A stretch of DNA of 58,412 nucleotides, the filler included, from an uncultured bacterium (GTDB lineage: Bacteria; DAOPZR01), in assembly GCA_964637655.1 (NCBI GenBank). It is 3 parts of 3 records of this genome, joined end to end, with 100 filler letters (N's around TTAATTAATTAA, not from the genome) between each part and the next. Parts side by side here need not be neighbours in the genome. Positions count along the whole stretch, not along the records: positions 1 to 20,054 come from CAZWUZ010000031.1; 2 more parts are not named here. The stretch is one strand, 5' to 3'. This document shows, in pieces, positions 2-16,900 of this stretch. Every line of letters begins with the position of its first letter. Position 1 is the first letter of the stretch. The notes beneath the pieces are model-generated. The model was not told where the DNA came from, did no database searches, and saw only the letters and a program-made list of their open reading frames with translations. Position numbers and translations under genes: made by a program.

Positions 2-583
2 CGTGATGGCACCGGGGCCAACCTGATCGCCCGCCGCCCGGGCACCGGCGACAAACCGGTACTCCTCTCGGCGCATTATGACACGAAACCGGACACGCCC
101 GGGGCACTGGACAATGCCGCCGGCGTCGCCGCGCTGCTGCTGGCGGCACGTGACCTTACGGCCCGGCCCGGGCCGGCGCTGGAACTGGTCTTCTTCGGCG
201 GTGAGGACAGCTGGTGGCCGGGCGATGAGGGATATATTCTGGCGTACCCGCCCGCGCGGGTCTGCCAGGCGATCAATCTTGACGGGGTCGGCTATCGCGG
301 CCGGCCGACCGCGCTGGCGCTGTTCAACTACGACGACCCGTCAAGCGCCGCCCTGCTCGCCCTGGTCAATGCGGCCGTCCCCTGCGTGACAGAGCCGTTT
401 TACGCCAGCGATCACGGCTTCTTCTGGCCGCACGGCGTGCCGACCATCGCGCTGACCAGCAGCGGTCTGCTGACCGCCGTCGGCACCGAGGTGCATACGG
501 CGGCGGATGTGCCGGCGCTCGTCGATACCTGCGTGGTGGCGCGCATCGCCCGCCTGCTGCCGCACCTTATGACCGGCGGCTGA
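2..583 (+). CDS. M28 family Zn peptidase, 5' partial
   Basis: Frame +2 is open from the window start: ...NLIARRPGTGDKPVLLSAHYDTKPDTPGALDNAAGVA...LVFFGGED...INLDGVG...SDH...HTAAD, the M28 zinc-ligand pattern. The track ORF 386..583 is only its C-terminus. Confidence 0.85.
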   Translation, partial: RDGTGANLIARRPGTGDKPVLLSAHYDTKPDTPGALDNAAGVAALLLAARDLTARPGPALELVFFGGEDSWWPGDEGYILAYPPARVCQAINLDGVGYRGRPTALALFNYDDPSSAALLALVNAAVPCVTEPFYASDHGFFWPHGVPTIALTSSGLLTAVGTEVHTAADVPALVDTCVVARIARLLPHLMTGG

Positions 584-1334
584 CCGCCGCCAGACGCACC
601 AGCTGGCGCCGCAGGCGCGCCACGCGCCGCCGGTGTTCGCCCAGCGTGGTCAGCCAGTAATCCGTCACGTAAACGATGTCCGCATCGGGTGACGGGGTGT
701 TGATCGCGTGACGCAGGTTCTGCCGGTTGCCCGTGTCGTACTCACCGAGCATGCGCAGGATGGCGGCGATGCTGTAGCCGGCAGTGCGCAGGGCACGGAT
801 GATTTTCAGCCGGCTGATCATCACTCCGTCATAGCGACAGTAGCCATGCCGGTCGCGGGTAATGCGCGCCAGCCCGTTGCGTTCCCACGTGCGCAGCGCC
901 TCGACCGTGCAGCCGATGCGTTCCGCCGCGGCGCGCCGGTGCACGAACACTTCCCGCCCCGGGCGCGGCGGCTGCTGCGCCCAGCGTTCCAGCTCACGCA
1001 GTGCCGCGTGCGCGCGTCGTGATTCGCGCTGCACATTGCGCGCGTAGGTGTCCAGCTGCGCGCGCGTCTCACGCAGGTCGCCGCGTGCCGCCGCCTTGAC
1101 CATGGCATAGACCGGTGTTCCTCCGCCGGGAAACGGACCGGGGAGCGCGAGACGCGCGAACTTCATCTGTTCGAGATGGTGTGGCGTGTAGGTGCGGTAG
1201 CCGTTGGGCAGGCGCGCCACCGGCGGCAGCAGTTCCCACTGCTCGTACTTGAGGACCGTGCTGCGATGCGTGCCGGCAGCACGCGCCAGGTCGATGGCGG
1301 TGAGAGAGCCGCGCCGCCGGGTGCGTGCTACCAG
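567..1334 (-). CDS. MerR-family regulator with two HTH domains; probable CTG start
   Basis: The frame extends upstream of the track start (1220) through LTAIDLARAAGTHRSTVLKYEQWELLPPVARLPNGYRTY (MerR HTH 1). A second HTH follows: AAAERIGCTVEALRTWERNGL...RDRHGYCRY. There is no ATG/GTG/TTG before the in-frame TGA at 1343-1341. CTG at 1334 has GGTGA 6 nt upstream. Confidence 0.8.
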   Translation of the reverse strand: MVARTRRRGSLTAIDLARAAGTHRSTVLKYEQWELLPPVARLPNGYRTYTPHHLEQMKFARLALPGPFPGGGTPVYAMVKAAARGDLRETRAQLDTYARNVQRESRRAHAALRELERWAQQPPRPGREVFVHRRAAAERIGCTVEALRTWERNGLARITRDRHGYCRYDGVMISRLKIIRALRTAGYSIAAILRMLGEYDTGNRQNLRHAINTPSPDADIVYVTDYWLTTLGEHRRRVARLRRQLVRLAAVSRRS

Positions 1335-1579
1335 CGTCCGTCACCGCCGCAGTTGATGCAGACCCCCGTGCCGCTGCAGGTGCTGCAGGAGGTTTCGCCC
1401 GAGCCGAGGAAACGCCCGGTGCCGTTGCAGGTGCTGCAACGCCCCGACCCGCCGCACGGACTGCAGACCGAACTGCTCGACGACGAACTTCCCCCGTCGT
1501 TCCCGTCATAGGTGCCGTAATAGCCGCCGCACCCGGCACACAGCAGTGCGACAGTCAAACCAATGAGCATGAGACGCAT
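1328..1579 (-). CDS. Small lipoprotein with four CxxCxGxG (DnaJ-type zinc-finger) motifs
   Basis: ATG at 1579 with GGAGGTG SD. Signal peptide and lipobox MRLMLIGLTVALLCAGC, Ser linker, then CSPCGGSG, CSTCNGTG, CSTCSGTG, CINCGGDG. Confidence 0.75.
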   Translation of the reverse strand: MRLMLIGLTVALLCAGCGGYYGTYDGNDGGSSSSSSSVCSPCGGSGRCSTCNGTGRFLGSGETSCSTCSGTGVCINCGGDGRW

Positions 1580-1645
1580 GAAACACCTCCACCTGTTTCC
1601 ATCATAGCAGACGCCTGCATCACTGTCCAAGCTTATTCGTTCCAT

Positions 1646-1674
1646 TTGACAGAAACAGCACAACAGGATAACTT
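1646..1674 (+). promoter_or_regulatory. Putative sigma70 promoter for precursor 1
   Basis: TTGACA-17nt-TAACTT upstream of the AAAGGA SD and ATG 1709. Confidence 0.45.
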
Positions 1675-1708
1675 GCCGGTAGTTGCTCTGTTGCCGAAAG
1701 GAACCGAC

Positions 1709-1984
1709 ATGACCAAACAAAATCTGGCGGCGCTGCTGGCAGCGTTGCGTGACAACAGGGAACTGCGCGCAAAACTCGCCGCGGCGGGAAGTCCCGCAGA
1801 GTTCGAACGACTGGCGGCAGCAGCCGGCTTTACCGTGTCAGCACAGGATTTCCTTTCGGGTACAGCGGACGATCTGAGCGACGCCGAACTCGAGCAGGTG
1901 GCCGGCGGCTACACCTTCCCGCAAACAGACTGGATCTACTGCGATAACCCATGGACCAACGTCTACTGCACCCTGAAGTGCTGA
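1709..1984 (+). CDS. Nif11-like leader RiPP precursor 1 (core YTFPQTDWIYCDNPWTNVYCTLKC)
   Basis: AAAGGA SD and ATG 1709. The helical Nif11-type leader ends DLSDAELEQVAGG. The 24-aa core has 4 Thr and 3 Cys. The gene converges on LanM. Confidence 0.9.
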   Translation: MTKQNLAALLAALRDNRELRAKLAAAGSPAEFERLAAAAGFTVSAQDFLSGTADDLSDAELEQVAGGYTFPQTDWIYCDNPWTNVYCTLKC

Positions 1985-2005
1985 CCCCTCCTGCCTGAGT
2001 CGCAG

Positions 2006-5000
2006 TCAGGCGAACAGCAGCAGGCGCGCGGTTGCTGTCTTGCGGTCGAGCAGATGCATGCCGATGCCCGGCAGGCCGGTCATCAGACCGGCCATCCCCA
2101 CCGTCGTTCCCGTCCCCAGGTCATTGAACCGGAATGTTGCCGTCATCCGCCAGTGTGCGAGCAGCGCGCCAGTCAGTTGCCGTGCCGCGACAGCATACCG
2201 TTCCTCCCCCGTCCACAAGCCAAGCGCCCGCAGAATCGCTGCACGACCGGCATTGCCGCAGCAGAGATGATCCGCCGGCAGCGGCGGCGCGTTGACCATG
2301 AGTTCCCCGGCGCGATGCAGTTCTTCGCGCCAGTGCGCCGCGGCGGGATGCCCGGGGAACAGTTCCAGGGCGCGCCCGCGCGCCAGTCCGATACCCGCCG
2401 CGCCATGACACCACGCGTTCATGAACGTCGGAGTCGCGCTGCGCAGATCAGGCCAGTTGCCCGCATGCGCATCGAACAGCGCCTGTTCGTACGCGAATGC
2501 GCGCGCCCCGGCGTCGATATACCGTTCGTCAGTGAGTACCGCGCCGGCACGCAGCAGGGCCAGCCCGATGCCTGATGCTCCGTGCGCATAGCCGGTCAGT
2601 GCGCGCGGGGCTGACGCCGTGAGCCACCCGCCACTGTGCAGGTTCTGCCGCGCCAGCAGTTGCCCGGCCAGCAGGTGCAGCACTGCACGCGCCGCTGCAC
2701 CATAGCCATGGTCGCACAGGTCGGCCACCGGGCCGACAGCACCCGCCGCACCGCCAATCACATCAAGCCGCACATCGTTGCTGACCAAACCGTCCGACAG
2801 CGCCGTGAGCAGTCGCACGCGAATATGTTCCGCCTCCGCTGCCGTCGCCGGGATACCGGGAAGCGACAGCAACTGCAGGAAGCCGCCGACCCCTGTGAGT
2901 CCCGGGCCGCGGTCGCGCAGCAGCCGGTGCAATTCGTCATCCGGACACTGCGCCAGCCGTTCGCCGAGCGGCTGCCATACCCGCGCCGTCAGTGCAGCGG
3001 CGCGCGCAGTCACGCCGGCGCTCAGCCCGGCATGCGCCAGGGCACTGAGGAATGCCACCAGTCCGCTGCGCCCGGAATAGAACCCGTCATCCATGAGACC
3101 GAGTCCCGCCTGCATCCCGTCGCCCAGCAGGCCAAAACTCAGCCAGGTAAGCCGCCCGCGTCCGTCTGTCACCGCGTTCCGCTCGAGCACATCAAGCATG
3201 CCCGCAAACAGTTGTTCCTGTTCGCCGTCACGCCAGCGGTCGCTGCCGGCCGCCACCGGTGCTGACGGCACATCAGTCACGCCCTGCATCCGGTAGGTGC
3301 GCACGCCAACCGCAGCGCGGATGAGTTGTGCCTGCCAGGCACTCTGGTCCGCGCCCGTCTGCCGGACGCGGGCAAGCGCAACCGCCAGTCCGTCATCAGC
3401 AAGCACGTCGCGGATGCACCGCCCGCCGCCGTACAGGTCGCGGGAACCGGACACGTGATCGAAATACGGGATGTCCAGCGCTTCGAGGTCATGCAGTTCC
3501 GCGCCGTAGCAGTCCCAGAGCGGACCGACTGACGGTGCGAGCAGGTAGCCGCGGGCCATGCGTTCCAGTTCGATGCCGCGGGCGGCGGCGGAACGCAGAC
3601 AGTCGGGCGAAAGCAGCCGCTGCTCCAGTATGGCGTAGATGCGCGTCGCCCGCAGCACCGTGCGCCGGCGCAGGCCGCTGCAAGCGGCGATTCGCGTTGC
3701 CAGTTCCTGACGCCGCGGCGGGGTCAGCAATTCTTTGCTCGCCGTACAAAAACCGTCAACCAGCGCGTCAACATGGTGCGCCAGCGGATTCGGTTCACCG
3801 GCCGCCACCGGCAGTGACGGGCGCACCGCCGGCTGTGCCGGGCGCCATCCCCAGGCCATCGCGTCGGTATTGCAGTTGATCCAGCCAGCAGTTTCCTCCG
3901 CATCAGCACCGGAGACGATGCCGAGCGCGCTGATATCAGTCGCCCGTTTCCGTGACGCGCTGTACTGCCAGGCCGGAAGCAGGCCGACCCGCAGCACCGA
4001 CATGCCGGGGTCATCGTGCTCCGCGCCGGCGCCGGCATCGTCGCCGGCAGCGCTTTTCACCCGGCTGTCGAACAGCGTTTCCGGATCGATCAATACCAGC
4101 CGGTCCGCGCCGGCAATGAGATTCTCCGCATGGCAGTCGGTGGCACCCAGCAACTGCAGCAGGGCAAGCAGGCGCCCGGCATGGCGGTAGAATGCCGGCA
4201 GTTCCGCGGCATCAGCGACGGGGCGATGCGCGACGAAACCGGCATAGCCGTATGACTCGCCGACGGCAAGCACCGGCACCGGTGGCGCGCCGGCAAAATC
4301 CGTCGCCAGCCGGTGGTATGCCTGCTCGAGCCGCATATCCTTGGGCTTGTACACGACGCGCACCGGGTCGCCGGTGCCGGCCAGCGTGACAATGGTCACC
4401 ATGCGGCCGCCGCGATGCGCATCCCCGGCGCACGTCAGGCGCAGCACGCGCAGCGGCAATGCCGCACCGAACGCTGCCGCGATGGCACCGGCATCGGCCT
4501 GCAGCCGCGCCCCGAGTTCGCCGAACATCGCCGACCAGGCCTGCACCGTCGTCGCCAGCAGGCGGGGCAGGACCGGGAATGCGCTGCTCAGTGCGGTCAG
4601 TCCGCCGGCAGCCATGGCCCGGACGAACGCGGCGTAGCGCACGCGTTCCGCCGCCACCGGTTCCGTGCCGAGGGCGAGTTTGAGCGACAGCCCCGGGTCA
4701 CGACCGGCGGCAAAGAGTTCCATAAGCGCGCGCGCGGAGAGGTACGACAGGCGTCCGGCCAGCCAGCAGTGCGCGTCGCTGATGGCCTCCGCCGTAAAGA
4801 CAGCCGTGCCGCCGTCCGGAACAGGCCATGCCTGCGTCGCCAACCACCAGAGGTGGATGAACGGCACCGTCGCAGCGGCCGCGTCAGCGGGCAGTGCCGT
4901 GTCTGCGAGCCACGCCATGTCGTCCGCCGGGCCGGCCGCCGCGGCGCGCACCGCCTCACCCAGGTGCAGGTATGCCGGCCACCACGCGGGCGCGGTGGTC

Positions 5001-5257
5001 AGTGCCGGGTTATCCGTCAGGGCGATGGCAGCCGACCGCTCATCCAGTCCGCCCGCCGCGAGACGCCGGGCGAACAGGCCTGACGCATCAGCATCGACAG
5101 CGCGCCGCCAGTCAGCAAGCAGTCCGTCCACGTCAGCAACCGGGCACGCCGGTGCCGCGGCAGCACGCGCCAGCCGCTCATCCCAGCGTTCGCCTGCCCG
5201 CCACAGGCGCAGGTCAGCTGGTGACGGCAGCGTGCTGCCCGGCGTGACGCCGTCCAT
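2006..5257 (-). CDS. lanM: Class II lanthipeptide synthetase LanM (CCG zinc motif)
   Basis: Dehydratase motifs GDAHRGG, VYKPKD, TDCHAENLI, LIDPETLF, SVLRVGLLP. Cyclase motifs GYAHGASG, AWCHGAAG, HLCCGNAG. Start placed at ATG 5257, just after the stop of the TPM gene. Confidence 0.93.
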   Translation of the reverse strand: MDGVTPGSTLPSPADLRLWRAGERWDERLARAAAAPACPVADVDGLLADWRRAVDADASGLFARRLAAGGLDERSAAIALTDNPALTTAPAWWPAYLHLGEAVRAAAAGPADDMAWLADTALPADAAAATVPFIHLWWLATQAWPVPDGGTAVFTAEAISDAHCWLAGRLSYLSARALMELFAAGRDPGLSLKLALGTEPVAAERVRYAAFVRAMAAGGLTALSSAFPVLPRLLATTVQAWSAMFGELGARLQADAGAIAAAFGAALPLRVLRLTCAGDAHRGGRMVTIVTLAGTGDPVRVVYKPKDMRLEQAYHRLATDFAGAPPVPVLAVGESYGYAGFVAHRPVADAAELPAFYRHAGRLLALLQLLGATDCHAENLIAGADRLVLIDPETLFDSRVKSAAGDDAGAGAEHDDPGMSVLRVGLLPAWQYSASRKRATDISALGIVSGADAEETAGWINCNTDAMAWGWRPAQPAVRPSLPVAAGEPNPLAHHVDALVDGFCTASKELLTPPRRQELATRIAACSGLRRRTVLRATRIYAILEQRLLSPDCLRSAAARGIELERMARGYLLAPSVGPLWDCYGAELHDLEALDIPYFDHVSGSRDLYGGGRCIRDVLADDGLAVALARVRQTGADQSAWQAQLIRAAVGVRTYRMQGVTDVPSAPVAAGSDRWRDGEQEQLFAGMLDVLERNAVTDGRGRLTWLSFGLLGDGMQAGLGLMDDGFYSGRSGLVAFLSALAHAGLSAGVTARAAALTARVWQPLGERLAQCPDDELHRLLRDRGPGLTGVGGFLQLLSLPGIPATAAEAEHIRVRLLTALSDGLVSNDVRLDVIGGAAGAVGPVADLCDHGYGAAARAVLHLLAGQLLARQNLHSGGWLTASAPRALTGYAHGASGIGLALLRAGAVLTDERYIDAGARAFAYEQALFDAHAGNWPDLRSATPTFMNAWCHGAAGIGLARGRALELFPGHPAAAHWREELHRAGELMVNAPPLPADHLCCGNAGRAAILRALGLWTGEERYAVAARQLTGALLAHWRMTATFRFNDLGTGTTVGMAGLMTGLPGIGMHLLDRKTATARLLLFA

Positions 5258-5267
5258 CAGGCAGGGC

Positions 5268-5720
5268 TCAGGTATTCCCGGAGATATCGTCGGAGAGTTC
5301 GTTGCGATCGGCGGTGCCCGTCGACGGAAAATGCTCGCCCAGGCGGACCCCGATATCGCGGATGCCTGCCTCCAGGCCGCCGGCAAAATCATCCGCACGG
5401 AACCGTTCCTCCAGCAGGCGCGCGGTGGCATCCCAGAACCCGGCCGGGACACGCGCATCGATGCCGCTGTCGCCGATGACCGCGAATTTCCGGGCGCCGG
5501 GCGAAAGGTAGAGCAGCACGCCGTTGCGCTGCGCGGTGGCCGTCATGCCGAGTTTTTCGAACCAGTGAATGGCGCGTTGCGTCGCGTCGCCGGGACAGCG
5601 CCGCTCGAGATGCACGCGGATCTCGCCCGAGGTCTGCTGCTCCGCCGCGCGAATCGCCGCGATCACCCGCTGCCGCTCGGGTTCGCTGAGAAACCAGCGC
5701 GGATTCGCCGATCGTGTCAT
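5268..5720 (-). CDS. TPM-domain protein (short type)
   Basis: MTRSANPRWFLSEPERQRVIAAIRAAEQQTSGEIRVHLE...RNGVLLYL...FAVIGDSGID...NELSD; third gene of the lemA-TPM-TPM operon. Confidence 0.85.
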   Translation of the reverse strand: MTRSANPRWFLSEPERQRVIAAIRAAEQQTSGEIRVHLERRCPGDATQRAIHWFEKLGMTATAQRNGVLLYLSPGARKFAVIGDSGIDARVPAGFWDATARLLEERFRADDFAGGLEAGIRDIGVRLGEHFPSTGTADRNELSDDISGNT

Positions 5721-5731
5721 TTCCGCCCCCC

Positions 5732-6481
5732 CTACCATCCGCCTGAGGAACCGCCGCCGCCGAACCGGCCGCCGCCGCCACCACCGAAGCCGCCGAAACC
5801 ACCGCCGCGCGAGCCCGAGCCGCCACCCCAGCCCGAAGAGCGCCAGCCGCGCGAACTGTACGTATGGGAAGAGCGCAGGCGTCCCGTCAGAAACAGGTAG
5901 AGAAAGATGAGCCCGATGATAATCTTCACCCATTTGCCGATGGTGGCGGAATCAGGCAGTGAATTGTCAATGGTGCGCGGTTGCACCATCGCTGTCGCCG
6001 CGCCGGTATCACCGAGCGCCGCGAGGATGGCCGTCACGCCGGCCCGGAACCCGCCGTCGTAGTCACCCGCCTTGAACCGCGGCGTGATGTCGTTGCGGAT
6101 GATGCTGCTGCTGCACGCGTCGGTCAGGGTCGCTTCCAGCCCGTAGCCGACCTCGATACGCAGCTTGCGATCGTCGCGAAATGCCAGCAGGATGACCCCG
6201 TTATCCCTGCCGCGCTGCCCGATTTTCCACTGCTCCGCCAGTTTGATGGAAAACCGTTCCAAACTGTCGCCCGCCAGCGACGGGAAGGTGGCGATCACCA
6301 CCTGGTTGCCCGTCGTCCGCTCGTAGCGTTCGAGTTGCCGTTCAAGTTCCTCCGCGACTGCCGCTGAAATCATCCCGCCGCTGTCGTTGACCCGCGCGGC
6401 GGGCCGTTCGGGCACAGCCAACCCCGCACAGCAGACAAAGAGCGCGGTGGCGACCGCGACGGCAGTCAGGCGGCGACGCAT
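5732..6481 (-). CDS. TPM-domain (YgcG-like) membrane protein with Gly-rich tail
   Basis: Signal peptide, RVND...WKIGQRGRDNGVILL...RIEVGYGLE, TM helix, C-terminal GGFGGFGGGGGGRFGGGGSSGGW. Confidence 0.9.
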   Translation of the reverse strand: MRRRLTAVAVATALFVCCAGLAVPERPAARVNDSGGMISAAVAEELERQLERYERTTGNQVVIATFPSLAGDSLERFSIKLAEQWKIGQRGRDNGVILLAFRDDRKLRIEVGYGLEATLTDACSSSIIRNDITPRFKAGDYDGGFRAGVTAILAALGDTGAATAMVQPRTIDNSLPDSATIGKWVKIIIGLIFLYLFLTGRLRSSHTYSSRGWRSSGWGGGSGSRGGGFGGFGGGGGGRFGGGGSSGGW

Positions 6482-6484
6482 CGG

Positions 6485-7120
6485 TCAGCGCGCAACCGGA
6501 GTGGTGAAATCAACCTGCGGTGCGATGTCCGCGCCTTCCTGCATCTGGAAATATTCCTTGGCCTGGAAGTCGAAGAAGCCCGCGATGATGTTCATCGGGA
6601 ACTTGCGGCGGTAGGTGTTGTAGTCCTGCGCTGTCTCGTTGTAGCGCATCCGCTCGACGGTGATGCGGTTTTCCGTACCCTCCAGCTGGCTCTGCAGGTT
6701 GAGAAACCCCTCGTTGGCGCGCAGCTGCGGGTAGTTTTCCACCACCACCATCAGCCGCGACAGCGCCGAGCTGAGTTCACCCTGCGCCTGCTGGAAGGCG
6801 GCGAATTTCTCCGGGTTGTCAACCGTGCCGGGCGCAGCCCCCATTCCCGCCACGCGCGCCCGCGCCTCGGTCACCCGCGTCAGCACGTCCGCCTCGTGCG
6901 CGGCATACCCTTTTACCGTCGCCACCAGGTTGGGGACGAGGTCAGCGCGCCGCTGGTAGACATTCTCCACCTGCGACCAGGCCGTCGTCACCGCCTCCTG
7001 CTTCTCCACCAGCGTGTTATACGCGGTGAATGGCGAACCGACCAGCGCCAGCAGCGCCACACCGGCAATGAGCACCAGCCCGATAACAGATCCCGCAGCA
7101 ATCAGACAGCCCTTTTTCAT
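6485..7120 (-). CDS. lemA: LemA family protein
   Basis: YNTLV...AWSQVENVYQRRADLVPNLVATVKGYAAHE...ENYPQLRANEGFLNLQSQLEGTENRITVER. Confidence 0.95.
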   Translation of the reverse strand: MKKGCLIAAGSVIGLVLIAGVALLALVGSPFTAYNTLVEKQEAVTTAWSQVENVYQRRADLVPNLVATVKGYAAHEADVLTRVTEARARVAGMGAAPGTVDNPEKFAAFQQAQGELSSALSRLMVVVENYPQLRANEGFLNLQSQLEGTENRITVERMRYNETAQDYNTYRRKFPMNIIAGFFDFQAKEYFQMQEGADIAPQVDFTTPVAR

Positions 7121-7191
7121 GGCAGTTCCTCCACGCGTAATGGTTTATTTTATCATCCCCCGTTTACCCCGTCTACCGGGACAACGGCATG

Positions 7192-7220
7192 TTGCTTACC
7201 GCGCCGCTGTCATGTAACAT
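7192..7220 (+). promoter_or_regulatory. Putative sigma70 promoter for precursors 2 and 3
   Basis: TTGCTT-17nt-TAACAT upstream of the CAGGAG SD and ATG 7249. Confidence 0.45.
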
Positions 7221-7248
7221 ACTCCGGGACGGACAACAGGAGCGGGGC

Positions 7249-7503
7249 ATGAGCAGCGAATCGGCAAAAGTGTTTATCGAGCGGTTGCGCACCGATGAGG
7301 AATTCGTGGCGCGGATCAAGGCCTGCCCCGACGCCGACGCGCGACTGGCACTGGCCAGAACCGAAGGGTTCGATTTCACCCCGGCAGAAATCACCGCGCA
7401 GGCGGGCGAACTGTCAGATGACGAACTGGATGGCGTCGCGGGCGGCGTCTTTGACGGGCTACCCTGTTTCACTGACAGCATCATCAATACCTGCGGGAAA
7501 TGA
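7249..7503 (+). CDS. Nif11-like leader RiPP precursor 2 (core VFDGLPCFTDSIINTCGK)
   Basis: MSSESAKVFIERLRTDEEF...EGFDFTPAEI...ELSDDELDGVAGG leader; AGGAG SD. Confidence 0.92.
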   Translation: MSSESAKVFIERLRTDEEFVARIKACPDADARLALARTEGFDFTPAEITAQAGELSDDELDGVAGGVFDGLPCFTDSIINTCGK

Positions 7504-7516
7504 ACAGGCGGGCGGC

Positions 7517-7762
7517 ATGAGCAGCGAATCGGCGAAAGCGTTTCTCGAGCGGTTGCGCACTGACGAGGATTTCGTGGCGCGGATCAAGGCCTGCCCCAGC
7601 TCCACCGCGCGCCTGGCACTGGCGAAAGCCGAGGGCTTCGACTTTTCTCCAGCTGAGATCAGGGCGCAGGCGAGCGAACTGTCGGACGCGGAACTGGAGC
7701 AGGTGGCCGGCGGCGGCAAGGGTTACTGCTGCACCGGCGACACCGCCGACCCGAAGGGCTGA
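7517..7762 (+). CDS. Nif11-like leader RiPP precursor 3 (core GKGYCCTGDTADPKG)
   Basis: Leader near-identical to precursor 2, ending ELSDAELEQVAGG. Confidence 0.92.
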   Translation: MSSESAKAFLERLRTDEDFVARIKACPSSTARLALAKAEGFDFSPAEIRAQASELSDAELEQVAGGGKGYCCTGDTADPKG

Positions 7763-7769
7763 ACTGCGG

Positions 7770-8735
7770 TCACCACGGCGGCACTGACTGTGCGGCCGGG
7801 GCAGCGGGTAGCACCAGTACTTTTTCCACCTGCACACTGTGCCGGGTAACTGACACCGCGTGACTGAACCGGCGGCGGAACATCGCCGCCATCGCCTGAT
7901 TATCATGACGGATCATGCACGAAGCGAGCGGAATCCCCGCCCGTTCCTGCCGCCGCAGCGCTTCCCCCATCAGGGCACAGGCAAGCGGGCTGCCGCGCCA
8001 CGGCTGGCGGACAAAAAGCCCGTTGTAGGCGATGCGGTCGGGTGCGGTCCGCGTGGCAATCACCCAGCCGGCCGGTTCTTCGCCGCAACGCACACCGACG
8101 CTGATTGACGGTTCGAGCGTCGACAGATGCCGGTACGGATCGATAAAGATCGCCGGCGGTTGTTCCTCCGGCCGTAGCAAGTCCATAAACCGTTCCCGCG
8201 CGACTGTCGCCAATTCTCTCAGCGGAAAGAATGTGCAGCCGGCCGGCAGCAGGTCACGCCGGAAAACCGCCGTTTCCGCCAGCAGTTTTTCCAGTGGCAC
8301 GGTATGCAGGGCAAACCGGGGCTGTGGCGACGACCACCCGGCAGCGGCAAGCGTTCCCGTCAGATATCCGTGGGTTTCCTCTGTGTAGACGAACCGCAGC
8401 GCGCGACAACCGCGCCGGTGCATGGCTGACTCGAAATGCCCCAGCAGTTCGCGCTCAATCACCGCGCCGCGACAGGAGAGCGCCACTGACAGGGAAAGCA
8501 GGTCACCACTTCCGGTTTTCTCGCCCGTCCCCACCCGGCCAAGCGCCAGTCCCGCCGCGCACACCCCGTAGCGAAACGCGCCGATGGCCACCATGCCATC
8601 CGGTGCCGCTATCGCCTGTTCCGCGTAGCGGGCATAGGTAAACTCGCGGAACAGCGTGAGGTCGGCCGGGTCGAGTTGCTCATACGTGGAAAATGCCGTT
8701 GCTCCGGCAGCCGTCACCTCGTCCCGCAATGACAT
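7770..8735 (-). CDS. Tandem GNAT acyltransferase (RiPP-tailoring type)
   Basis: Two GNAT-like halves: LLSLSVALSCRG...RRGCRALRFVY...AGWSSPQPR and LEPSISVGVRCGEEPAGWVIATRTAPDRIAYNGLFVRQPWRG...DNQAMAAMFRRR. ATG is 2 nt after the rSAM stop. Confidence 0.75.
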   Translation of the reverse strand: MSLRDEVTAAGATAFSTYEQLDPADLTLFREFTYARYAEQAIAAPDGMVAIGAFRYGVCAAGLALGRVGTGEKTGSGDLLSLSVALSCRGAVIERELLGHFESAMHRRGCRALRFVYTEETHGYLTGTLAAAGWSSPQPRFALHTVPLEKLLAETAVFRRDLLPAGCTFFPLRELATVARERFMDLLRPEEQPPAIFIDPYRHLSTLEPSISVGVRCGEEPAGWVIATRTAPDRIAYNGLFVRQPWRGSPLACALMGEALRRQERAGIPLASCMIRHDNQAMAAMFRRRFSHAVSVTRHSVQVEKVLVLPAAPAAQSVPPW

Positions 8736-8737
8736 AT

Positions 8738-10159
8738 TCAGAAGTCGAGCAGGCAGGGTTTGGGCGGCACGAGGTCGTGGTCCGCCAGGAAAGCGCGCGC
8801 GTCCGCGTCGAGGTCGCCGGCAATCACTGCCGCCAGTTCGAGTTCGCGGCGCCGCAGGCGGCAGAAGTCCGCCGCCGGGATGAAGACCGAGCCGCTGGCA
8901 CCCGCATTATCGTGCTTGCAGCCGCCGGCACAATAATGGCGCGCCGGGCAGGCGGCGCAGGCGGCGACCAGCGTCAGCGGACTCTCCTGGTACCGCTCGC
9001 GGTCGAGGGCGTCGCCAAAGACGCTGCCCAGTTTGTACTCTTCCCGCCCGACAAACCGGTGGCAGAGATAGACATCCCCGTTGCAGGCAATCGCCACTGC
9101 CTGCCGCCCCGCCCCGCAGGCGTGGAACTGCCGGCGCTGGTGCAGCAGGGCCAGCAGCGCCCGCTGCAGTTCGCTGACCACCTTCAGTTCCTGCAGGCCC
9201 CTGACATCACGCTCGCCGATCAGACGCCACCACGTTTCCGCTTCCTGTTCGAGGTGCATCAGCAGCCGCTCCGTATCCCGCTGCCGCGCGGCAGCATCGT
9301 TCCGCCCGTCGAGCAGCGAGGCCGAAGCGGGCGTCACCGTGGCCCGGCTGAAGCCGAGCGCCCGCATGGCGTCTTTGACCGCCTGCGGTTCAGCCCCGCC
9401 TGCCAGCACGGCATGTCCTGCCGTCTGCGGCAGTACCACCAACAGTTTTTTCAGGCCGGCTGCCACCGTGTCGTATGAGCCACGCCCGTCGGCAAACGGA
9501 CGCTGCGCATCCTGCACCGCGCGCAATCCGTCGCAACTGACAATGACGTCAAACGCATGCTTGCTGAGGAACGCTACGGTTGCGTCATCCAGCAGGGTGC
9601 CGTTGGTCGTCACGGAAAAGGCCGCCTGCCGGTCCAGCGCCGCCGCACGCGCCGTGGCATAGGCCACCACCGTCTGCAGCAGGGTGAAATTCAGCAACGG
9701 TTCACCGCCGAGAAAACCAATGTGGATTTTCTTCATCCGCCCGGCCTGGCGGAACAGCCAGTCGACCGCCTGCCGCGCAGTGCGCTCTTCCATGACTCCG
9801 CCGGTACCGTAACTGCCGCCGGTCCCATAGCAGTAGATGCAGTTGAGATTGCATGACTGGGTCAGAAAGAATTCGCCGGTGACCACCGGTACCGGTGCGC
9901 CGCGGGCATGCCGCACCGGGCGCGCCTCCGGCGCTGCCAGCAGGCCAAGCCGTGCCAGCCGCTCCCGCGTCGGAGCATCGGGCGACAATGCCGGCGCGGC
10001 AGCGAAGCGGTTGAGCAAGCGGGCATCGTCATCCGTCACCGCAACAGCGCGCATCGCCCCGATGTCGATAACATAGTAATGCCCGCGGTGCGCAAACAGG
10101 TGATACGGCCGTATGCTGCCAGCCGCCGGATTGTCCGTGCTGATACCCGGATTCGTCAT
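8738..10159 (-). CDS. Radical SAM/SPASM peptide maturase with N-terminal RRE-like domain
   Basis: CNLNCIYC, FLGGEPLLNF, TTNGTLL, SCDG. SPASM: CGAG...DVYLCHRF...CAACPARHYCAGGC...FC. N-terminal HLFAHRGHYYVIDIG beta-beta-helix segment. Confidence 0.92.
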   Translation of the reverse strand: MTNPGISTDNPAAGSIRPYHLFAHRGHYYVIDIGAMRAVAVTDDDARLLNRFAAAPALSPDAPTRERLARLGLLAAPEARPVRHARGAPVPVVTGEFFLTQSCNLNCIYCYGTGGSYGTGGVMEERTARQAVDWLFRQAGRMKKIHIGFLGGEPLLNFTLLQTVVAYATARAAALDRQAAFSVTTNGTLLDDATVAFLSKHAFDVIVSCDGLRAVQDAQRPFADGRGSYDTVAAGLKKLLVVLPQTAGHAVLAGGAEPQAVKDAMRALGFSRATVTPASASLLDGRNDAAARQRDTERLLMHLEQEAETWWRLIGERDVRGLQELKVVSELQRALLALLHQRRQFHACGAGRQAVAIACNGDVYLCHRFVGREEYKLGSVFGDALDRERYQESPLTLVAACAACPARHYCAGGCKHDNAGASGSVFIPAADFCRLRRRELELAAVIAGDLDADARAFLADHDLVPPKPCLLDF

Positions 10160-10165
10160 GCCCGC

Positions 10166-10194
10166 ATCATACTAACGCGCCGGAGCATCGTCAA
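10166..10194 (-). promoter_or_regulatory. sigma70 promoter directly before the rSAM ATG (leaderless candidate)
   Basis: Minus strand TTGACG (10194-10189), 17 nt, TATGAT (10171-10166), then only 6 nt to the ATG. No SD. Confidence 0.6.
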
Positions 10195-10238
10195 TGCCCG
10201 TCTGCAACGCGCCAGCCGTTCCCCCGGTATATACCGGT

Positions 10239-10916
10239 ATGAGCCACCACCGCTATCTTGCCCTGCTCGAACAGTTCTGTTTCCCTGATAACGGGTTGCG
10301 TCGTGAAGCGCTGCGCCGCCTGCTGCCGCCGCACGAGCTGCAGCAGGATGGCGTCAGCACCAACCTGGTGGTCCCGGCACGCGCTGCTCAATTCATCACA
10401 CTGGCCGCGCATTACGATACCTTCCCGGGGAGCATGGGCTATTACGACAATGGTACGGGGGTGGCCGTGCTGCTCGACCTCCTGCCGCAGCTGCCGCCGT
10501 GGGTCGAAGTCGTCTTCACCGACAACGAGGAGCATGTCGGACTGGGCGCGCAGCTCTACTGCACACTCCGCCGCCCGCTGGCCACCATCAATGTTGACGT
10601 GGTCGGGCACGGAAAGACGCTGCAGATCGAACGGTTCAATGGCTTTCCCTACGCGATTCCTGACGGGCAGGTCAATGAACTGCGCGACGTGCCGTTTTCC
10701 GACAGCACCATCTTTGCCGGGGCGGGCATTCCCGGCCTGCTCATCATCGCCGGCAACGGCGGCTACGACGAGGTTATCGGTGACATCTTCCTGCGCGAAC
10801 ACAACAATAAACTGGATAACCGGCTCGACAGCATCGACCCGCGCACCATGGAACTGGCGTACCGTTTCCTGCACGACCTGGTCGCAGCCGCCGGCAGACA
10901 CCACGGGTGTGAGTAA
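10239..10916 (+). CDS. Small M28 family peptidase
   Basis: ITLAAHYDTFPGSMGYYDNGTGVAVLL...VVFTDNEE...INVDVVG...FSD...H. No signal peptide seen. Confidence 0.85.
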   Translation: MSHHRYLALLEQFCFPDNGLRREALRRLLPPHELQQDGVSTNLVVPARAAQFITLAAHYDTFPGSMGYYDNGTGVAVLLDLLPQLPPWVEVVFTDNEEHVGLGAQLYCTLRRPLATINVDVVGHGKTLQIERFNGFPYAIPDGQVNELRDVPFSDSTIFAGAGIPGLLIIAGNGGYDEVIGDIFLREHNNKLDNRLDSIDPRTMELAYRFLHDLVAAAGRHHGCE

Positions 10917-10979
10917 CCTGCCATGGCGTGCGATGGCGTTGCCGGCAGTGCCGCCGGGCAGCGCAGCGACATATGCGCC

Positions 10980-13900
10980 TCAGAAAATCAGTTTCTGCAG
11001 TCGCACGCTCTTGGCGATCACCGCCTTGAGGAACTGGCAGCCGACGTCGGGATCATCCCGCATCAGCGACAGCAGCACCGTCCGGTCGAGCGTGTAGACC
11101 CGCGCGTCGCCGAGGATGACCTCGGCAGTAACCGGCGACATGCCGTTCTCCAGCAGACAGTCCTCGCCCAGGAAACCGGATGCGCTCACCACCCCGATGG
11201 TCCCCAGCCAGCCGTAGCAGGAATGCTGCTGCAGCTCGATGGTCCCCTCCGCGACGAGAAAGAGCCGGTCGTTGGCCTGCTGTTCGAAGACCAGGTCCTG
11301 TCCCTCGGCACAATGTTCCAGGCGCGCGGCGGCGGCGATGTTCGTCACGGTCGCCCCCGATAGCGCGTTGAAGAGCGGCACCGTCCGCAGAAATGCCGCG
11401 CGCTCCGCCAGTGCCGCACCGATCAGTTCACGCATCCTCACGGGCTCGAGTTCGGGCCAGGCAAAGCCGCAGGCGCCCAGCGCTGTCAGGGTCATGGTAT
11501 TGGTCAGCAGGTTCCGCGTCTGCAGCGCCCCGTCCTCCTGCGCCAGCCAGTCCTGGTGCAGAAGCAGGTTGTCGATATGCTCCTTGAAGCCGGGGCGGCC
11601 GTAATGCCCGCTGAGCAGGCCGACGAATTCCGGGAAAGCCAGCCGCCGGATATTCAGGCCGAATTCCGGGCTCCCCAGCACATCCGACAGTTTTATCCAG
11701 TGCGGGTTGAACAGGTGAAAGGTCTCGTTGGTGAGTGCCGTGCGGTCGAACAGGGTGACGATGGCCAGCGCCAGCTGGTCCACGAACGACAGGTCGGCCT
11801 CGTCGAACCGGTCCGGTACCGCGCCCAGGTTCACGTAGGCCCGCACCGTCTGGAAAAAGGCGTTGTCAGCGACGTTTTTCTGCACCCGGCCGCGCAGCGT
11901 GTCGAACGTGATATTGCCGACCCGGTAAATGCTGGCGTTCAGGCCGCGTTCACGCAGCTGGCGGATGACCTTTTCCGCCGCGAACTTGGTTTTGACATAG
12001 ACGTGGTCCAGCTGCTGGCCGATATCGTCGTCGAACTCCGTGTACAGCGCGAATTCACGGCCGGCGACCGTACCCACCGCGACCGACAGGGTGGAGACAT
12101 GATGCAGGTCCTTCTTCCTCCCCGCCAGGGCGAATTCGCCGAGGTTGCTGACCGTCTCGACATTCGCCCGGTGAAAGTCCTCGTACTTGCCGTAATGCCT
12201 GACGTTGGCGGCGGGATTGATGATGCAGTCGACGGTCTCCTGCAGTTCGCGGCAGGTCGCCTCGTCGAGGCCGAGGTTTGGCTCCGTCAGGTCACCCCGC
12301 ACCACGCGGATGCGGGCCGCATCCCCATCAAGGAACCCGTCCCCGAAATAGTACGCCATGCTCTCCTGCACCCGCTGCCGGGCAAGGTCGTCCGTGGCAG
12401 CGCGGACCGGCAGCACCAGCTGCGCCGTCGTGGTGCGCAGCAGCTGGTACAGTAGGTAGGACCCGAGGTACCCGGTCGCCCCGGTCAGCATCATGGTGCG
12501 GTAATCCCGGCGCGCAGCATAGTCACGCTGCGCGTACGCCGTCGCGCGCTCATGATATGCCTGCAGCTGCGCGTCGATTTCCGCCGTGTGCAGGTGGTAG
12601 GTGGCAAGGTCCGTTTCAGCGAACAGCAGGCCGGGGATCAGCGGCATCTCCCTGAGCCGCGCCAGCCGCGTCTGGATGTTGTTTTCGCGCAGCTTTACGC
12701 GGGGCGCCAGTTTGGCGATGGTCGGGTAATTGAAGATGTCGTTGACACTGACCTCGAATTCCTTCTGCAGTTCCGCCACCAGCGCCACCGCCTTCAGCGA
12801 ATGGCCGCCCAGGTCGAAGAAATTGTCGAGCATCCCGACCTGCGCAACCCCGAGCACCCGCTGCCAGGTGGCGGCGAGTTTCTGCTCGATGGCCGTCGCT
12901 GACGCCACGTATTCGCCGCCGGTGTCGACCTGCCGGCTCAGTGCCGGCAGTTTCTTGCGGTCGACTTTGCCGTTCGCGGTGAGCGGCAGTTCGTCGAGTT
13001 TCATGAAATACGACGGGATCATGTAATCGGGCAGGTCGGCCGCGAGGAAACGGCGGAACTCGGCCACCGCCACGGTGCGCGTGCCGCTGTAGTAGGCGAC
13101 CAGCTCCGCCGCCCCCTGCTCGTCCGGGCGGGCCAGCACCACGACGTTGGTGAGGTCAGGATGATGCAGCAGGCGGCTCTCGATCTCGCCCAGTTCGATG
13201 CGGAACCCGCGGATCTTGACCTGGAAATCGATGCGCCCGAGATACTCCAGTTCACCGTTGGCCAGGCGCCGCGCCAGGTCGCCGGAGCGGTAGATGCGTT
13301 CGCCGGCGATATACGGGTTCTCCACGAATTTCTCGCCGGTGACGTCAGGCAGGCCGAGATAGCCGCGCGCCAGTCCGTCACCCGCCACGCAGATTTCGCC
13401 GGGCACTCCGGGCGGCAGCAGCCGCAGCCGGCCATCCATGATGTAGGTGCGCAGCGTCGGGATGGGCACGCCGATATTGCTGATGTTGCCGGTGATCTCC
13501 GCCGCGGTGATCTCCTTGAACGTCACGTGCACGGTGGTCTCGGTGATGCCGTACATGTTGATGAGCCGGGTGGCGGGATACCGTTCATGCCATGCCCCGA
13601 GCAGCGCCGGCTTGAGCGCCTCGCCGCCGAACGTCACGTAGCGCAGTGCCAGGTCGCGGTCTGCGGTGCGCAGATCCTCCTCGATGAACTTGTAGAAGGC
13701 GCCCGGCGTCTGGCTCAGGACCGTCACCTTTTCGCGCTTGCACAGCTGCACGAACGCGGCAGGCTCGATGATGACCTCCTTCGGCGCCATCACCACCCGC
13801 CCGCCATACAGCAGCGCGCCGTACATTTCCCAGACGCTGAAATCGAAACAGAACGAATGGAACATGCTCCAGACGTCATGCTCGTCGACCTGGTACTGGA

Positions 13901-16900
13901 AACGGTCGTTGACGAACAGCCGCAGGATGTTCCCGTGCTCGAGCATCACGCCCTTGGGCCGGCCGGTCGAGCCGGACGTGTAGATGATGTACAGCAGGTG
14001 CTGTGCCGTCGCGGCGGGTGACAGGTTTGCGTCCTCGGGAGCGTACTGTGCCTCATCCATGAAGTCGATGATGTTGCCCCGGTAGCTGCCGGCCAGTTCA
14101 AAAAACTCGCGGGTGGTGAGCAGCAGCCGGGCCCCGCTGTTCTCGAGCATGAACTCGATCCGGTCGCGGGGAAATTCCGGTTTCATCGGCAGGTAGCAGC
14201 CGCCCGCCTTGATGATGGCCAGGATGGCCACGATCATTTCCGGCCGGATATCGGTGATCAGCGCGACGATGCTGTCAGGGACGACGCCGCGCGCGCGCAG
14301 GGTGCGCGCCAGCCGGTTGGCGCGCGCGTTCAGTTCACGGTAGGTCAGCGCGCGCTCCTTGTACGTCACCGCGACCCGTTCGGGGAACCGCGCCGCCATC
14401 TCCTCGAACCGGGCGTGGACAGTCATCTCCCGCGGGTAGTCCGCGTCGGTCTGGTTGTGGGCGTAGAGCAGTTCGTCGATCTCGCTCGCGGTCAGCAGGT
14501 CGATATCCGCGATGGCCTGCTCAGGATCCCGCACCAGCGCGCGCAGGATGGTGCGGAAATGACCGGCCAGGCGCCCGATGGTGGCGCGCTGGAACAGGCT
14601 GGTCCGGTATTCCCAGTTCACCGTCATGGTGGTGTCGTGCTCGCAGACCTCGAGCAGCAGGTCGAGGTGCGCGATGTGATGCGTGTACGGGGCGTGGCTG
14701 AACCGCAGGCCGCCGCTGACCTGCTCCTGCGCACCGCTCCCCTGGTACACCATGCCCACGTCGAACAGCGGGTTGCGCCCCGGGTCGCGCGCGAGCTGCA
14801 GCTGCTGCACGAGCTGCTCGAACGGGTAATCCTGGTTTTCCAGGGCATCGAGAAAATCGTGCCTGACCTCGTCGAGGAACGCGGTAAACAGCTTCCCGCT
14901 TTCCGGCCGCGCCCGGAAGGGAAGCGTATTGACAAACATGCCGACCAGGTGCTGCACGTCGACGTGGCTGCGTCCCGCACTGCCGATGCCGATGATCACA
15001 TCCTCAGCCGCGGCGTACTTGTGGAGCAGCACCGCGTAGGCTGCGAGCAGCAGGATGTTGGGCGTGACCCCGCGCCGCTGCGCCAGTTCGCGCAGGGCGC
15101 CGGTCAGCGTCTCGTCCAGGGTGCTGGCGAACGTGTCGCCGGCATAGTCCAGCAGCGCCGGCCGGGTGAAGTCGGCGGGCAGGTCGAGGACGGGCAGGTC
15201 GCCGGCAAAACGCTCGCGCCAGAACCGTTCCTGTTCCGTGATGGCGCCGGAGGCCAGCAACCGGGTATGCCATACCGCGTAGTCGCGGTACTGCACCCGC
15301 AGTTCCGGCAGGTCGCGCTCCGCGTACAGGGCCACCAGGTCGCGCAGCAGAATCGGGATGGAAGTGCCGTCGAAAATGGCGTGATGCAGGTCGAACACCA
15401 GGTAATACTGCCGCGCGGTCACCTTGAGCAGCAGCAGCCGGAACAGGGGCGGGGCCTGCAGGTCGAACGGTTTGACAAACGCGGCCACCGACGCCGCCAG
15501 TTCGTCGTCGGCGATTTCGCGGAAGGTTTTCTTGTACCTGACCTCGCGATGGATGCGCTGCACCGGCTCACCCTGCACCAGCGCGAACGAGGTGCGCAGC
15601 GCTTCGTGGCGGGCGATCAGCCGGTCGAGGGCGCGGCTCAGCCGCCCCTCGTCCAGTTCGCCCGTCAGCGCGAACACGCAGGGAATATTGTAGGTGGTGC
15701 CGATCCCCTGCAGCTGCCCGATGATGAACAGCCGCTTCTGCGCGGAGGTTACCGGGTAGTGCTCCTGCTCCGGCTGCCGGTCGATCGTCGCCAGCCGGAC
15801 CTGGTGCGCGCCCTGGATCACCGGCGCGAATGCCCTGATGGTCGGATAGCGGAAGACGCTGGCCAGCGGAACCTCGACGCCAAAGCACGTGCTGATCCGC
15901 GCGGCGAGCATGGTCGCCGACAGCGAATGGCCGCCCAGGTCGAAGAAGTTGCTTTCCGTGCTGATACGGTCGAGCCCCAGCACTTCCTGCCAGAGCGCCA
16001 GCAGCTGCTCCTCGATGCTGTTCGCGGGCCGGACCAGTTCGCCGGCGAGGACCGGCTCCGGCAGCGCCTTGCGGTCGATTTTGCCGTTCGGGTTGAGCGG
16101 CATGCGCGGCAGCGGCACGAGGAAGGCGGGAATCATGTACTCGGGGAGCGCCGCGCCCAGCATCTCCTTCAGTGCATCCGCCGCAAGGTCGCCGGCCGCC
16201 ACGTAATAGCCGCACAGGTACTTGTCGCCACCCGCGCGTTCGCGCGCCACGACAATCGCCTCGCTGACAGCCGGATGCTGCAGCAGGCAGGACTCGATCT
16301 CGCCGATCTCGATGCGGAACCCGCGGATCTTGACCTGGAAATCGATGCGGCCGAGAAACTCGATGTTCCCGTCGTCACGCCAGCGCGCCAGGTCGCCGGT
16401 CCGGTACATCTTCGTGCCCGGCACGAAGGGGTTGTCAACGAACGCCGCCGCCGTCTTCTCCGGGTTGTTGAGATAGCCGCGCCCGACCCCCGCACCGGCA
16501 ATGCACAGTTCGCCGGGCACACCGACCGGCAGCAGGTGATTGCGCCGGTCCACGATATAGATCCGGTAATTGGCGCACGGGCGCCCGATGGGAATATTGT
16601 CGTACTGCCGGTCCACAGTGAAGAACGTGGCATAGACCGTGCACTCTGTCGGGCCGTAGCCGTTCACCAGCCGGTACGGGCGCGGCGTGAAGGTCTTCAG
16701 CTTATCCCCGCCCGTCAGCAGCACGCGCAGCGCGGTGTCGCCTGTGAGCGCCATGAACTGCTCGGCGAACTGCGTCGGCAGGAAGGCGGAGGTGATGCCG
16801 TGCGTGACGAAGAACTGGCGCACCTGTTCCGGGTCCATGCGGATGTCCGCCGGCACGATATGCAGCGCCGCCCCGGCCAGCAGGGTCGGGAACAGTTCGT

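Follow-up and report, generated by a model that had tools for sequence, protein, structure and literature searches.

A Nif11-leader RiPP locus of an uncultured bacterium as two probable neighbouring modules: a conserved lanthipeptide pair and a TIGR04064 radical SAM enzyme with a divergent tandem GNAT

Introduction

When several maturation enzymes stand beside several precursor peptides, do they work on one shared pool of substrates, or do separate pathways merely adjoin each other? This question is raised by an 8.5-kb locus of an uncultured bacterium (assembly GCA_964637655.1), located at positions 1709-10159 of the 58,412-nucleotide stretch of DNA that we analysed (hereafter the window). The locus contains three Nif11-leader precursor genes (pre1, pre2 and pre3) for peptides made by ribosomes and modified after translation (RiPPs), a class II lanthipeptide synthetase (LanM), a radical S-adenosylmethionine (SAM) enzyme with a SPASM domain (rSAM) and a tandem-GNAT protein. 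The original prediction was that lanthionine formation, radical thioether formation and acylation act combinatorially on a shared precursor pool, and this was mostly not borne out. In our reading, the locus probably consists of two Nif11-leader RiPP modules that arose separately, are neighbours by chance and perhaps share leader processing: module A consists of pre1 and LanM, and module B consists of pre2, pre3, the rSAM and the GNAT. We favour this reading because pre1 and LanM recur alone in two metagenome loci, because none of 47 loci with this type of rSAM contains a LanM, and because the leaders fall into separate classes. Module B, the rarer of the two, probably gives rise to a new peptide that is both acylated and cross-linked.

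Precursors and maturation enzymes

All three precursor genes are on the plus strand, pre1 at 1709-1984 (91 aa), pre2 at 7249-7503 (84 aa) and pre3 at 7517-7762 (81 aa). Their products pass both Pfam Nif11 (E-values from 3e-12 to 6e-15; 3.4e-12 for pre1) and TIGR03798 (52.3, 67.1 and 76.2 bits for pre1, pre2 and pre3; cut-off 32.3), and each has a Gly-Gly cleavage motif (...VAGG) followed by a core of 15-24 residues, namely YTFPQTDWIYCDNPWTNVYCTLKC in pre1, VFDGLPCFTDSIINTCGK in pre2 and GKGYCCTGDTADPKG in pre3. The cores are unrelated to one another, and Cys, Thr, Asp and Lys can be read in every one of them, just as had been predicted. The first Cys is found at core position 11 in pre1, 7 in pre2 and 5 in pre3. 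Lys occupies positions 2 and 14 of the 15-residue pre3 core and position 18 of 18 in the pre2 core.

The enzyme genes are on the minus strand and run towards the precursors. LanM (2006-5257) converges on pre1 across a gap of 21 nt and passes TIGR03897 with 549.4 bits (cut-off 304), with the DUF4135 dehydratase and LANC_like domains both present. The predicted gene stood but its start at 5458 did not, the longer open reading frame (ORF) overlapping the upstream TPM gene; the correct start, 5257, lies about 10 nt past the TPM stop and yields the 1083-aa product also given by the gene call P0274. The enzyme is of the ProcM-like 'CCG' zinc-site type: its WCHG and HLCCGNAG motifs are invariant in alignment A6, and by sequence LicM2 (6st5, E 1.9e-36) is the nearest solved structure.

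In module B, the rSAM gene (8738-10159; 473 aa) is followed after a spacer of only 2 nt by the GNAT gene (7770-8735; 321 aa, a putative leader-dependent peptide N-acyltransferase), the end of which is 7 nt from pre3. The pair converges on pre2 and pre3, as predicted. Just upstream of the rSAM start is a promoter-like site found by consensus scan (10166-10194, minus strand; TTGACG-17-TATGAT, 10/12 matches), and rSAM and GNAT look like one translationally coupled operon.

The pre1-LanM pair in other genomes

Using an alignment of the closest LanMs, we scanned metagenomes and obtained 80 loci. The two with the best full context, L052 and L054, encode LanMs that are 57-61% identical to that of the window, and in both a pre1 orthologue lies directly after LanM in convergent orientation (11350-11625 in L052 and 11765-12100 in L054; phmmer 5e-43 and 1e-44). 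The cores of these orthologues, YTFPQTDWIYCDNPWTNQYCTLKC in L052 and YTFPPTDWIYCDNPWTNAWCTLRC in L054, differ from the pre1 core at 1 and 4 of 24 residues, respectively. No relative of the window's rSAM, GNAT, LemA, TPM, M28 or MerR was found in L052 or L054, where the other neighbours are unrelated genes for a TPR protein, a sugar dehydratase and a glycosyltransferase. Only pre1 among the window's precursors is conserved with this LanM lineage. A LanM search of 401 genomes from the phylum of G003 gave 0 matches at E<=1e-40.

Judged from these sequences, pre1 and LanM are a self-contained, portable pair with a strongly conserved product. Since the cores are near-identical while the LanMs beside them are only 57-61% identical, the comparison indicates strong selection on the product. 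The pre1 core is probably a specific, bioactive lanthipeptide, because it is nearly identical in three unrelated contexts. In the proposed maturation, pre1 would be dehydrated and cyclised by the ProcM-like LanM to give a class II lanthipeptide, with predicted rings Thr6-Cys11, Thr16-Cys20 and Thr21-Cys24.

Leader classes of the three precursors

We then asked which enzyme each leader resembles a substrate for. On a profile of rSAM-type leaders, built from the 31 leaders that adjoin rSAM_nif11 genes in other genomes, pre2 and pre3 scored 92.3 and 89.0 bits and pre1 only 24.1 bits; the training set itself ranged over 82-118 bits and 15 LanM-adjacent leaders over 11-62 bits. Action of the rSAM on pre1 is therefore unlikely, as its leader is off the rSAM-type profile. 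For the corresponding LanM-type profile we took 12 LanM-adjacent leaders, holding out the pre1 orthologues; it does not discriminate among the three leaders (61.1 bits for pre1, 61.6 for pre2 and 64.4 for pre3), which makes it unusable as evidence for or against cross-talk.

A second feature connects the two modules. As had been noticed at the outset, the leader end LSDAELEQVAGG is identical in pre1 and pre3. The best match to these 12 residues among the 31 rSAM_nif11-adjacent leaders of other genomes is 10/12, the probability of the 12-mer under the column frequencies of those leaders is about 4e-7, and leaders of the pre1 lineage match 11/12 residues. Recent gene conversion between the two leader ends is not evident, because the underlying DNA has 5/36 differing bases, among them those that move a Ser to the other codon family. 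The simplest reading would be that both leader ends have become co-adapted to a single leader protease or exporter, the gene for which lies elsewhere.

These results bear directly on the reading in which LanM, rSAM and GNAT form one hybrid pathway that shares all three precursors and combines lanthionines, radical cross-links and acylation. Several observations suit such a pathway and weigh against the two-module reading. The whole set occupies no more than 8.5 kb. There is no space for a promoter belonging to LanM alone, and the unit of which LanM is part diverges from pre2-pre3 across a shared region of 128 bp. The leader end of pre3 is of the pre1 lineage and, at a probability of about 4e-7, hardly expected from rSAM-type leaders. 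The three leaders are equal on the held-out LanM-type profile, with the restriction given above. Excerpts of PMC8524650 describe the 'CCG' motif as a mark of promiscuous ProcM-like LanMs. Six members of the GNAT family, found by a family profile search, adjoin LanM genes with Nif11 precursors. Finally, LanM, rSAM and pre2-type leaders occur together at the loci L056, L057 and L058, whose LanMs are 42-45% identical to the window's and whose Nif11 precursors are of both leader types; the rSAMs of L056 and L057 are SynChlorMet-type ScmE and ScmF, and L056 also has a distant TIGR04064 relative. The LanM frame of L056 is in pieces.

In light of the equal LanM-type profile scores, the pre1-type leader end of pre3 and the divergence of the LanM operon from pre2-pre3, LanM may also act on pre2 or pre3. 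We nevertheless regard the hybrid pathway as unlikely. Against it stand the occurrence of pre1 and LanM alone in L052 and L054, the count of 0/47 rSAM_nif11 loci with a LanM, and the pre1 precursor itself, with a leader at 24 rather than about 90 bits on the rSAM-type profile and a first Cys only at position 11. Both Thr residues of pre3 lie after its Cys pair, a poor layout for lanthionines. The window GNAT falls outside the LanM-associated clade of its family (SH-aLRT 99 for that clade), and a contig size that seems to mark a second rSAM-GNAT pair, described below, matches 0/96 LanM hits. The two-module reading thus remains our preferred one. The original prediction had also found the enzyme combination unlike any characterised system; loci that pair LanM with rSAM, and others that pair a tandem GNAT with rSAM, do exist elsewhere.

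The radical SAM enzyme and its family

The rSAM matches TIGR04064 ('nif11-like peptide radical SAM maturase') with 562.8 bits over residues 16-473 (cut-off 518.7). The second-best NCBIfam match is the PapB model NF047865, with 236.8 bits and below its cut-off of 340, and QhpD (200 bits) and the SCIFF maturase (199.5 bits) come next. Pfam finds Radical_SAM and SPASM, the latter at 23.6 bits vs 21.5. The translation contains the CX3CX2C site as CNLNCIYC and a C-terminal SPASM motif C-x2-C-x5-C-x3-C, and the nearest solved structure is 5wgg/5why (E 7e-42).

This family is widespread, with 962 cluster representatives matching the window rSAM at E<=1e-30. Our scan of GTDB genomes with the rSAM gave 47 rSAM_nif11 loci, 37 of them with a full-length rSAM ORF. 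Among the full-length loci, 32/37 have a Nif11 precursor close by, which in 24/32 is downstream and convergent; the window has the same arrangement, and module B is thus typical of the family apart from its one additional gene. LanM was present in 0/47 of these GTDB loci, and a strong relative of the GNAT in only 1/47, namely L030, where it lies 5 kb away.

The 30 distinct cores collected from the family are hypervariable and 7-35 residues long. Cys is found in 29/30, with the first Cys at core position 1-5 in 28/29. The first Cys of pre2, at position 7, is outside this usual range, which counts against our reading. In the favoured mechanism, pre2 and pre3 would be bound by the TIGR04064 enzyme through their family-specific Nif11 leaders, and the enzyme would form a cross-link based on Cys close to where the core begins. 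We infer such a cross-link because the rSAM is kin to the thioether-forming enzymes CteB, PapB and QhpD.

A more specific chemistry, also part of the original prediction, is that the rSAM forms PapB-type Cys-Asp beta-thioethers in pre2 (C-F-T-D) and pre3 (C-C-T-G-D), which would make the products true freyrasin-type ranthipeptides. An Asp does follow a Cys by 2-4 residues in both cores, PapB is the second-best NCBIfam match, and C-x(0-3)-[DE] occurs in 21/30 family cores compared with 16.7 (standard deviation 2.0) in shuffled cores, a level reached by 35/2000 shuffles. This enrichment is mild, and the PapB score stays below its cut-off. The motif is missing in 9/30 cores, and 6/30 (e.g. SSWCLWNG and GCLLMFG) have no acidic residue at all. 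Because these six cores lack any Asp or Glu, a Cys-Asp link cannot be the general rule of the family on the sequences compared, and the acceptor is therefore not Asp in general. The predicted Cys-Asp thioether was thus a guess rather than something established, and for pre2 and pre3 we consider it possible but doubtful. Our literature search found no paper that determines the reaction of TIGR04064 enzymes; the sole mention found, in excerpts of PMC3023750, is a 2011 prediction, in which Haft describes TIGR04064 systems with the rSAM as their only maturase.

At two other loci, L003 and L005, a 354-355-aa protein without a Pfam or NCBIfam match is encoded between rSAM_nif11 and the convergent precursor (9454-10518 and 9516-10583, respectively). 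This is the slot that the GNAT takes in the window, and both precursor cores contain Trp. Because this protein fills the same slot as the GNAT, the TIGR04064 scaffold seems, from gene order, to accept different tailoring partners.

The tandem GNAT

The predicted tandem GNAT was right in having two GNAT-like halves, and these belong to a single 321-aa protein. PF00583 matches residues 200-288 (E 2e-7), and an hhalign comparison of the N half with the C half (93.6% probability, E 2e-7) identifies two homologous GNAT cores in the one protein. Its relatives match over the full length; an exhaustive search found 718 cluster representatives at E<=1e-3 and only 4 at <=1e-30. The only close relative recovered by word search was P0002, at 56% identity. 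P0002 and an rSAM orthologue, P0007 (55% identity), are each on a contig of 25,170 bp, a size shared with none of the 96 LanM matches. This equal size, from which their linkage is deduced, suggests that P0002 and P0007 are a second rSAM-GNAT pair. Locus scans with the GNAT, both of genome contigs and of metagenome contigs (the latter with alignment A4), found nothing.

In a tree of 55 family members, the window protein groups with P0002, P0124, P0125 and P0133 (SH-aLRT 96-99). This is a third clade, apart from the LanM-adjacent clade (SH-aLRT 99) and from the main clade adjacent to NHLP precursors and rSAM genes (SH-aLRT 100). The GNAT family also adjoins NHLP precursors in 10/162 genomes of one class of Bacillota-like genomes, and most of these loci have Clo7bot-like rSAM/SPASM and C39-ABC genes as well. 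In two of the ten genomes the GNAT is directly paired with an NHLP precursor, one of these loci, L134, having no other maturase in view nearby. Excerpts of the NpuN report (10.64898/2026.01.31.703028) describe a tandem GNAT, NpuN, which uses acyl-coenzyme A (acyl-CoA) to acylate Lys1 of a Nif11 lanthipeptide and whose relatives are found with NHLP/Nif11 precursors but 'not always' with a lanthionine synthetase. Excerpts of PMC8784127 place Lys or Arg at the termini of selidamide cores. [quoted passage not shown] Lys2 or Lys14 of pre3 and Lys18 of pre2.

The GNAT itself provides arguments against this role. Its N-domain P-loop reads R-G-A-V-I-E, departing from the canonical Q/R-x-x-G-x-G/A. V92 stands where 68/72 relatives have Gly and is unique to the window GNAT, E94 stands where 69/72 have Gly or Ala and is common to 2 others, and the C-domain loop has Pro where 45/72 relatives have Gly. 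Because both P-loops are degenerate, the protein may have poor affinity for CoA, depend on a different donor or lack activity. The context of its clade was observed only in the window, with one further case deduced from P0002 and P0007, and its kinship to NpuN, KspN and PhaN is drawn only via the LanM-adjacent relatives.

For these reasons we weighed whether module B works with a GNAT that is not a peptide maturase, being instead decayed or regulatory, a self-protection protein or an acetyltransferase for another substrate. Besides the non-canonical loops, 36/37 full rSAM_nif11 loci manage without such a GNAT, and many members of the family carry a fused DUF4915, glycosyltransferase or methyltransferase domain in non-RiPP contexts. 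This alternative seems improbable to us, given that the 321-codon frame is intact and only 2 nt from the rSAM stop, that an rSAM orthologue seems to accompany the 56%-identical GNAT orthologue, that three other clades of the family directly adjoin NHLP/Nif11 precursors, and that L003 and L005 keep another gene of tailoring size in the same slot. We therefore retain the GNAT as the putative acylating enzyme of module B.

Several further arrangements were observed within the family. A recurrent module of tandem GNAT and NHLP precursor is represented by L134, L135 and L145-L153, and many of its cores have Lys beside Cys, e.g. SCKDFCVHDIF and YANCLGKCY. A likeness of the pre2 core to the GNAT-adjacent NHLP cores of L134 and L135 (P-C-F..D...C..K) is suggestive; as it involves three short peptides, it was not used. 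At L030 (Desulfobacter vibrioformis, 2164-16339), one strand encodes an NHLP-like peptide, a ketosynthase (KS), an acyl carrier protein (ACP), a ketoreductase (KR), a dehydratase (DH) and a tandem GNAT. Next come genes for an outer-membrane efflux protein and rSAM_nif11, then a Nif11 precursor and a HlyD-like protein, and lastly a PCAT together with an ABC protein. Its gene content has the look of a cluster for a lipidated radical-SAM RiPP that brings its own fatty-acid machinery; its GNAT is a distant relative, with 48.5 bits to the window GNAT. Tandem GNATs fused to DUF4915 include P0123, P0137, P0144, P0155, P0170, P0220, P0221 and P0270, among which P0123 has four GNAT stretches, and two DUF4915-tandem GNAT genes occur among 401 genomes of one phylum.

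Leader processing and export

In agreement with the original prediction, Pfam scans of 49 window ORFs revealed no C39 peptidase/ABC exporter, and a six-frame phmmer search of the whole 58 kb with the C39-ABC protein from L030 gave no match at E<=1e-5. The window thus has no PCAT in the neighbourhood of its Nif11-leader genes, and a C39 ORF is present in the fetched flanks of 20/47 rSAM_nif11 loci. Leader removal and export would accordingly be carried out by genes outside the window. One protease or exporter may be shared by pre1 and pre3, as suggested by their identical leader ends.

Beside the rSAM, and divergent from it, lies a gene for a 240-aa M28-family peptidase-like protein (10194-10916, plus strand), which gives a partial match to Pfam Peptidase_M28 (E 1.4e-11). 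It is 33% identical over 109 aa to an M28 peptidase fragment at 2-583 (plus strand), and the two flank the RiPP stretch on either side. Neither the 47 rSAM loci nor the 80 LanM loci had an M28 relative alongside. As a speculation, the gene at 10194-10916 could be a candidate for the leader-trimming enzyme.

Neighbouring genes and assembly

Between LanM and pre2 are three non-RiPP genes on the minus strand, two TPM genes (5732-6481 and 5268-5720; Pfam E-values 1.2e-39 and 5.2e-21, respectively) and LemA (6485-7120; Pfam 2.6e-60). LemA, TPM, TPM and LanM make up one tightly packed head-to-tail unit with gaps of about 3-11 nt, in which LanM is last. The 128-bp intergenic region (7121-7248) separates this leftward unit from the rightward pre2-pre3. 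It has a minus-strand promoter-like match in front of LemA (7175..7147) and, in the same simple consensus scan, no plus-strand match. The scan rests on consensus matches only and returned six sites in 11 kb vs 1.3 expected.

To the left of pre1 are a MerR regulator (567-1220, minus strand) and a small ORF (1328-1720, minus strand). The product of the latter has an N-terminus that is hydrophobic and lipoprotein-like, bears four CxxCxGxG-type repeats and has no significant Pfam match; a promoter-like site at 1629..1601 is within the span of the ORF. To the right, two genes away from the rSAM, a 2631-aa non-ribosomal peptide synthetase (10980-18875, minus strand) has the order C-A-T-C-A-T-R plus a C-terminal cNMP-binding domain, and we found no connection between it and the RiPP genes.

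The juxtaposition of these genes is unlikely to be an assembly chimera, since the junctions from pre1 to the M28-like gene are bridged by short contigs of four runs (X1-X4) from one study, as judged among 32/83 contig pieces listed and with the TPM1/TPM2 junction (5720-5732) as the exception. Single contigs of X2 and X3 connect position 4945 with 9441; one flank of this joint is only 20 letters long, and we regard it as a probable match by chance or through a repeat. No RNA run was listed as containing positions 1709-10159, which carries no information on expression.

Discussion

The two-module reading leaves room for a bolder proposal, namely an undescribed RiPP subclass in which the TIGR04064 cross-link is combined with side-chain acylation by the divergent GNAT, whose altered CoA-binding loops would hint at an unusual acyl donor, LanM may add a lanthionine to pre2, and a leader protease shared by all three peptides may complete a naturally hybrid lanthi/radical/acyl pathway. 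We hold this to be very unlikely. The sequences themselves show what the genes and their families are, how the operons are laid out, which class each leader belongs to and that module A is portable; the chemistry as a whole, the donor and site of acylation and the absence of cross-talk are inferred. In the two-module reading, the novelty resides in how rSAM_nif11 is paired with a divergent tandem GNAT, in what chemistry the rSAM family performs and in the conservation of the pre1 lanthipeptide. TIGR04064 enzymes have been predicted since 2011, and the locus offers two short substrates for one of them. Interest in tandem GNATs that lipidate RiPPs comes from the prospect of making defined lipopeptides, and a GNAT coupled to a radical SAM cross-linker would extend this acylation chemistry beyond lanthipeptides. 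The pre1 core is a candidate bioactive peptide that could be made directly. The comparison of leader classes, in turn, yields a simple rule, open to testing, that assigns Nif11 leaders to enzymes among co-located systems.

How does the locus compare with known systems? Where papers are cited, the comparison follows excerpts of them. Module A resembles the prochlorosins and their ProcM-like LanMs (PMC8524650, PMC10783134) in its Nif11 leader, its CCG-type LanM and the lack of a dedicated exporter adjoining the genes. It differs in that the window LanM has a single conserved cognate core while prochlorosins come from a hypervariable precursor library, and in that the host, judged from gene content, is not a cyanobacterium.

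For the rSAM, the closest characterised relatives are CteB (5wgg/5why), PapB (freyrasin) and QhpD, with which it has the SPASM architecture and Cys-containing substrates in common. It is below their cut-offs, its precursors differ from theirs in leader type and in core rules, and the window cores have no repeated CX3D motif. The TIGR04064 systems of PMC3023750 are a closer likeness: the equivalog cut-off is passed, Nif11 leaders of the family type converge on the enzyme, and Cys comes early in the core. Compared with these, the window lacks a nearby PCAT exporter and adds the GNAT.

As to the GNAT, the acyl-ACP-dependent enzyme that acylates the N-terminus of goadvionin (PMC8784127) likewise joins a lipid to a RiPP. 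The window GNAT has no adjoining ACP or KS gene, while a relative from its family is in the KS-ACP-KR-DH operon of L030. The selidamides and nostolysamides, made with KspN, PhaN and NpuN, are alike in combining an NHLP/Nif11 precursor with a tandem GNAT and in having Lys at the core ends. NpuN is reported with a canonical N-domain P-loop, which the window GNAT does not have, and the window GNAT belongs to a clade separate from the LanM-adjacent relatives. The clearest difference from these lanthipeptide systems is that the GNAT in the window is operon-coupled to a radical SAM enzyme and not to a LanM.

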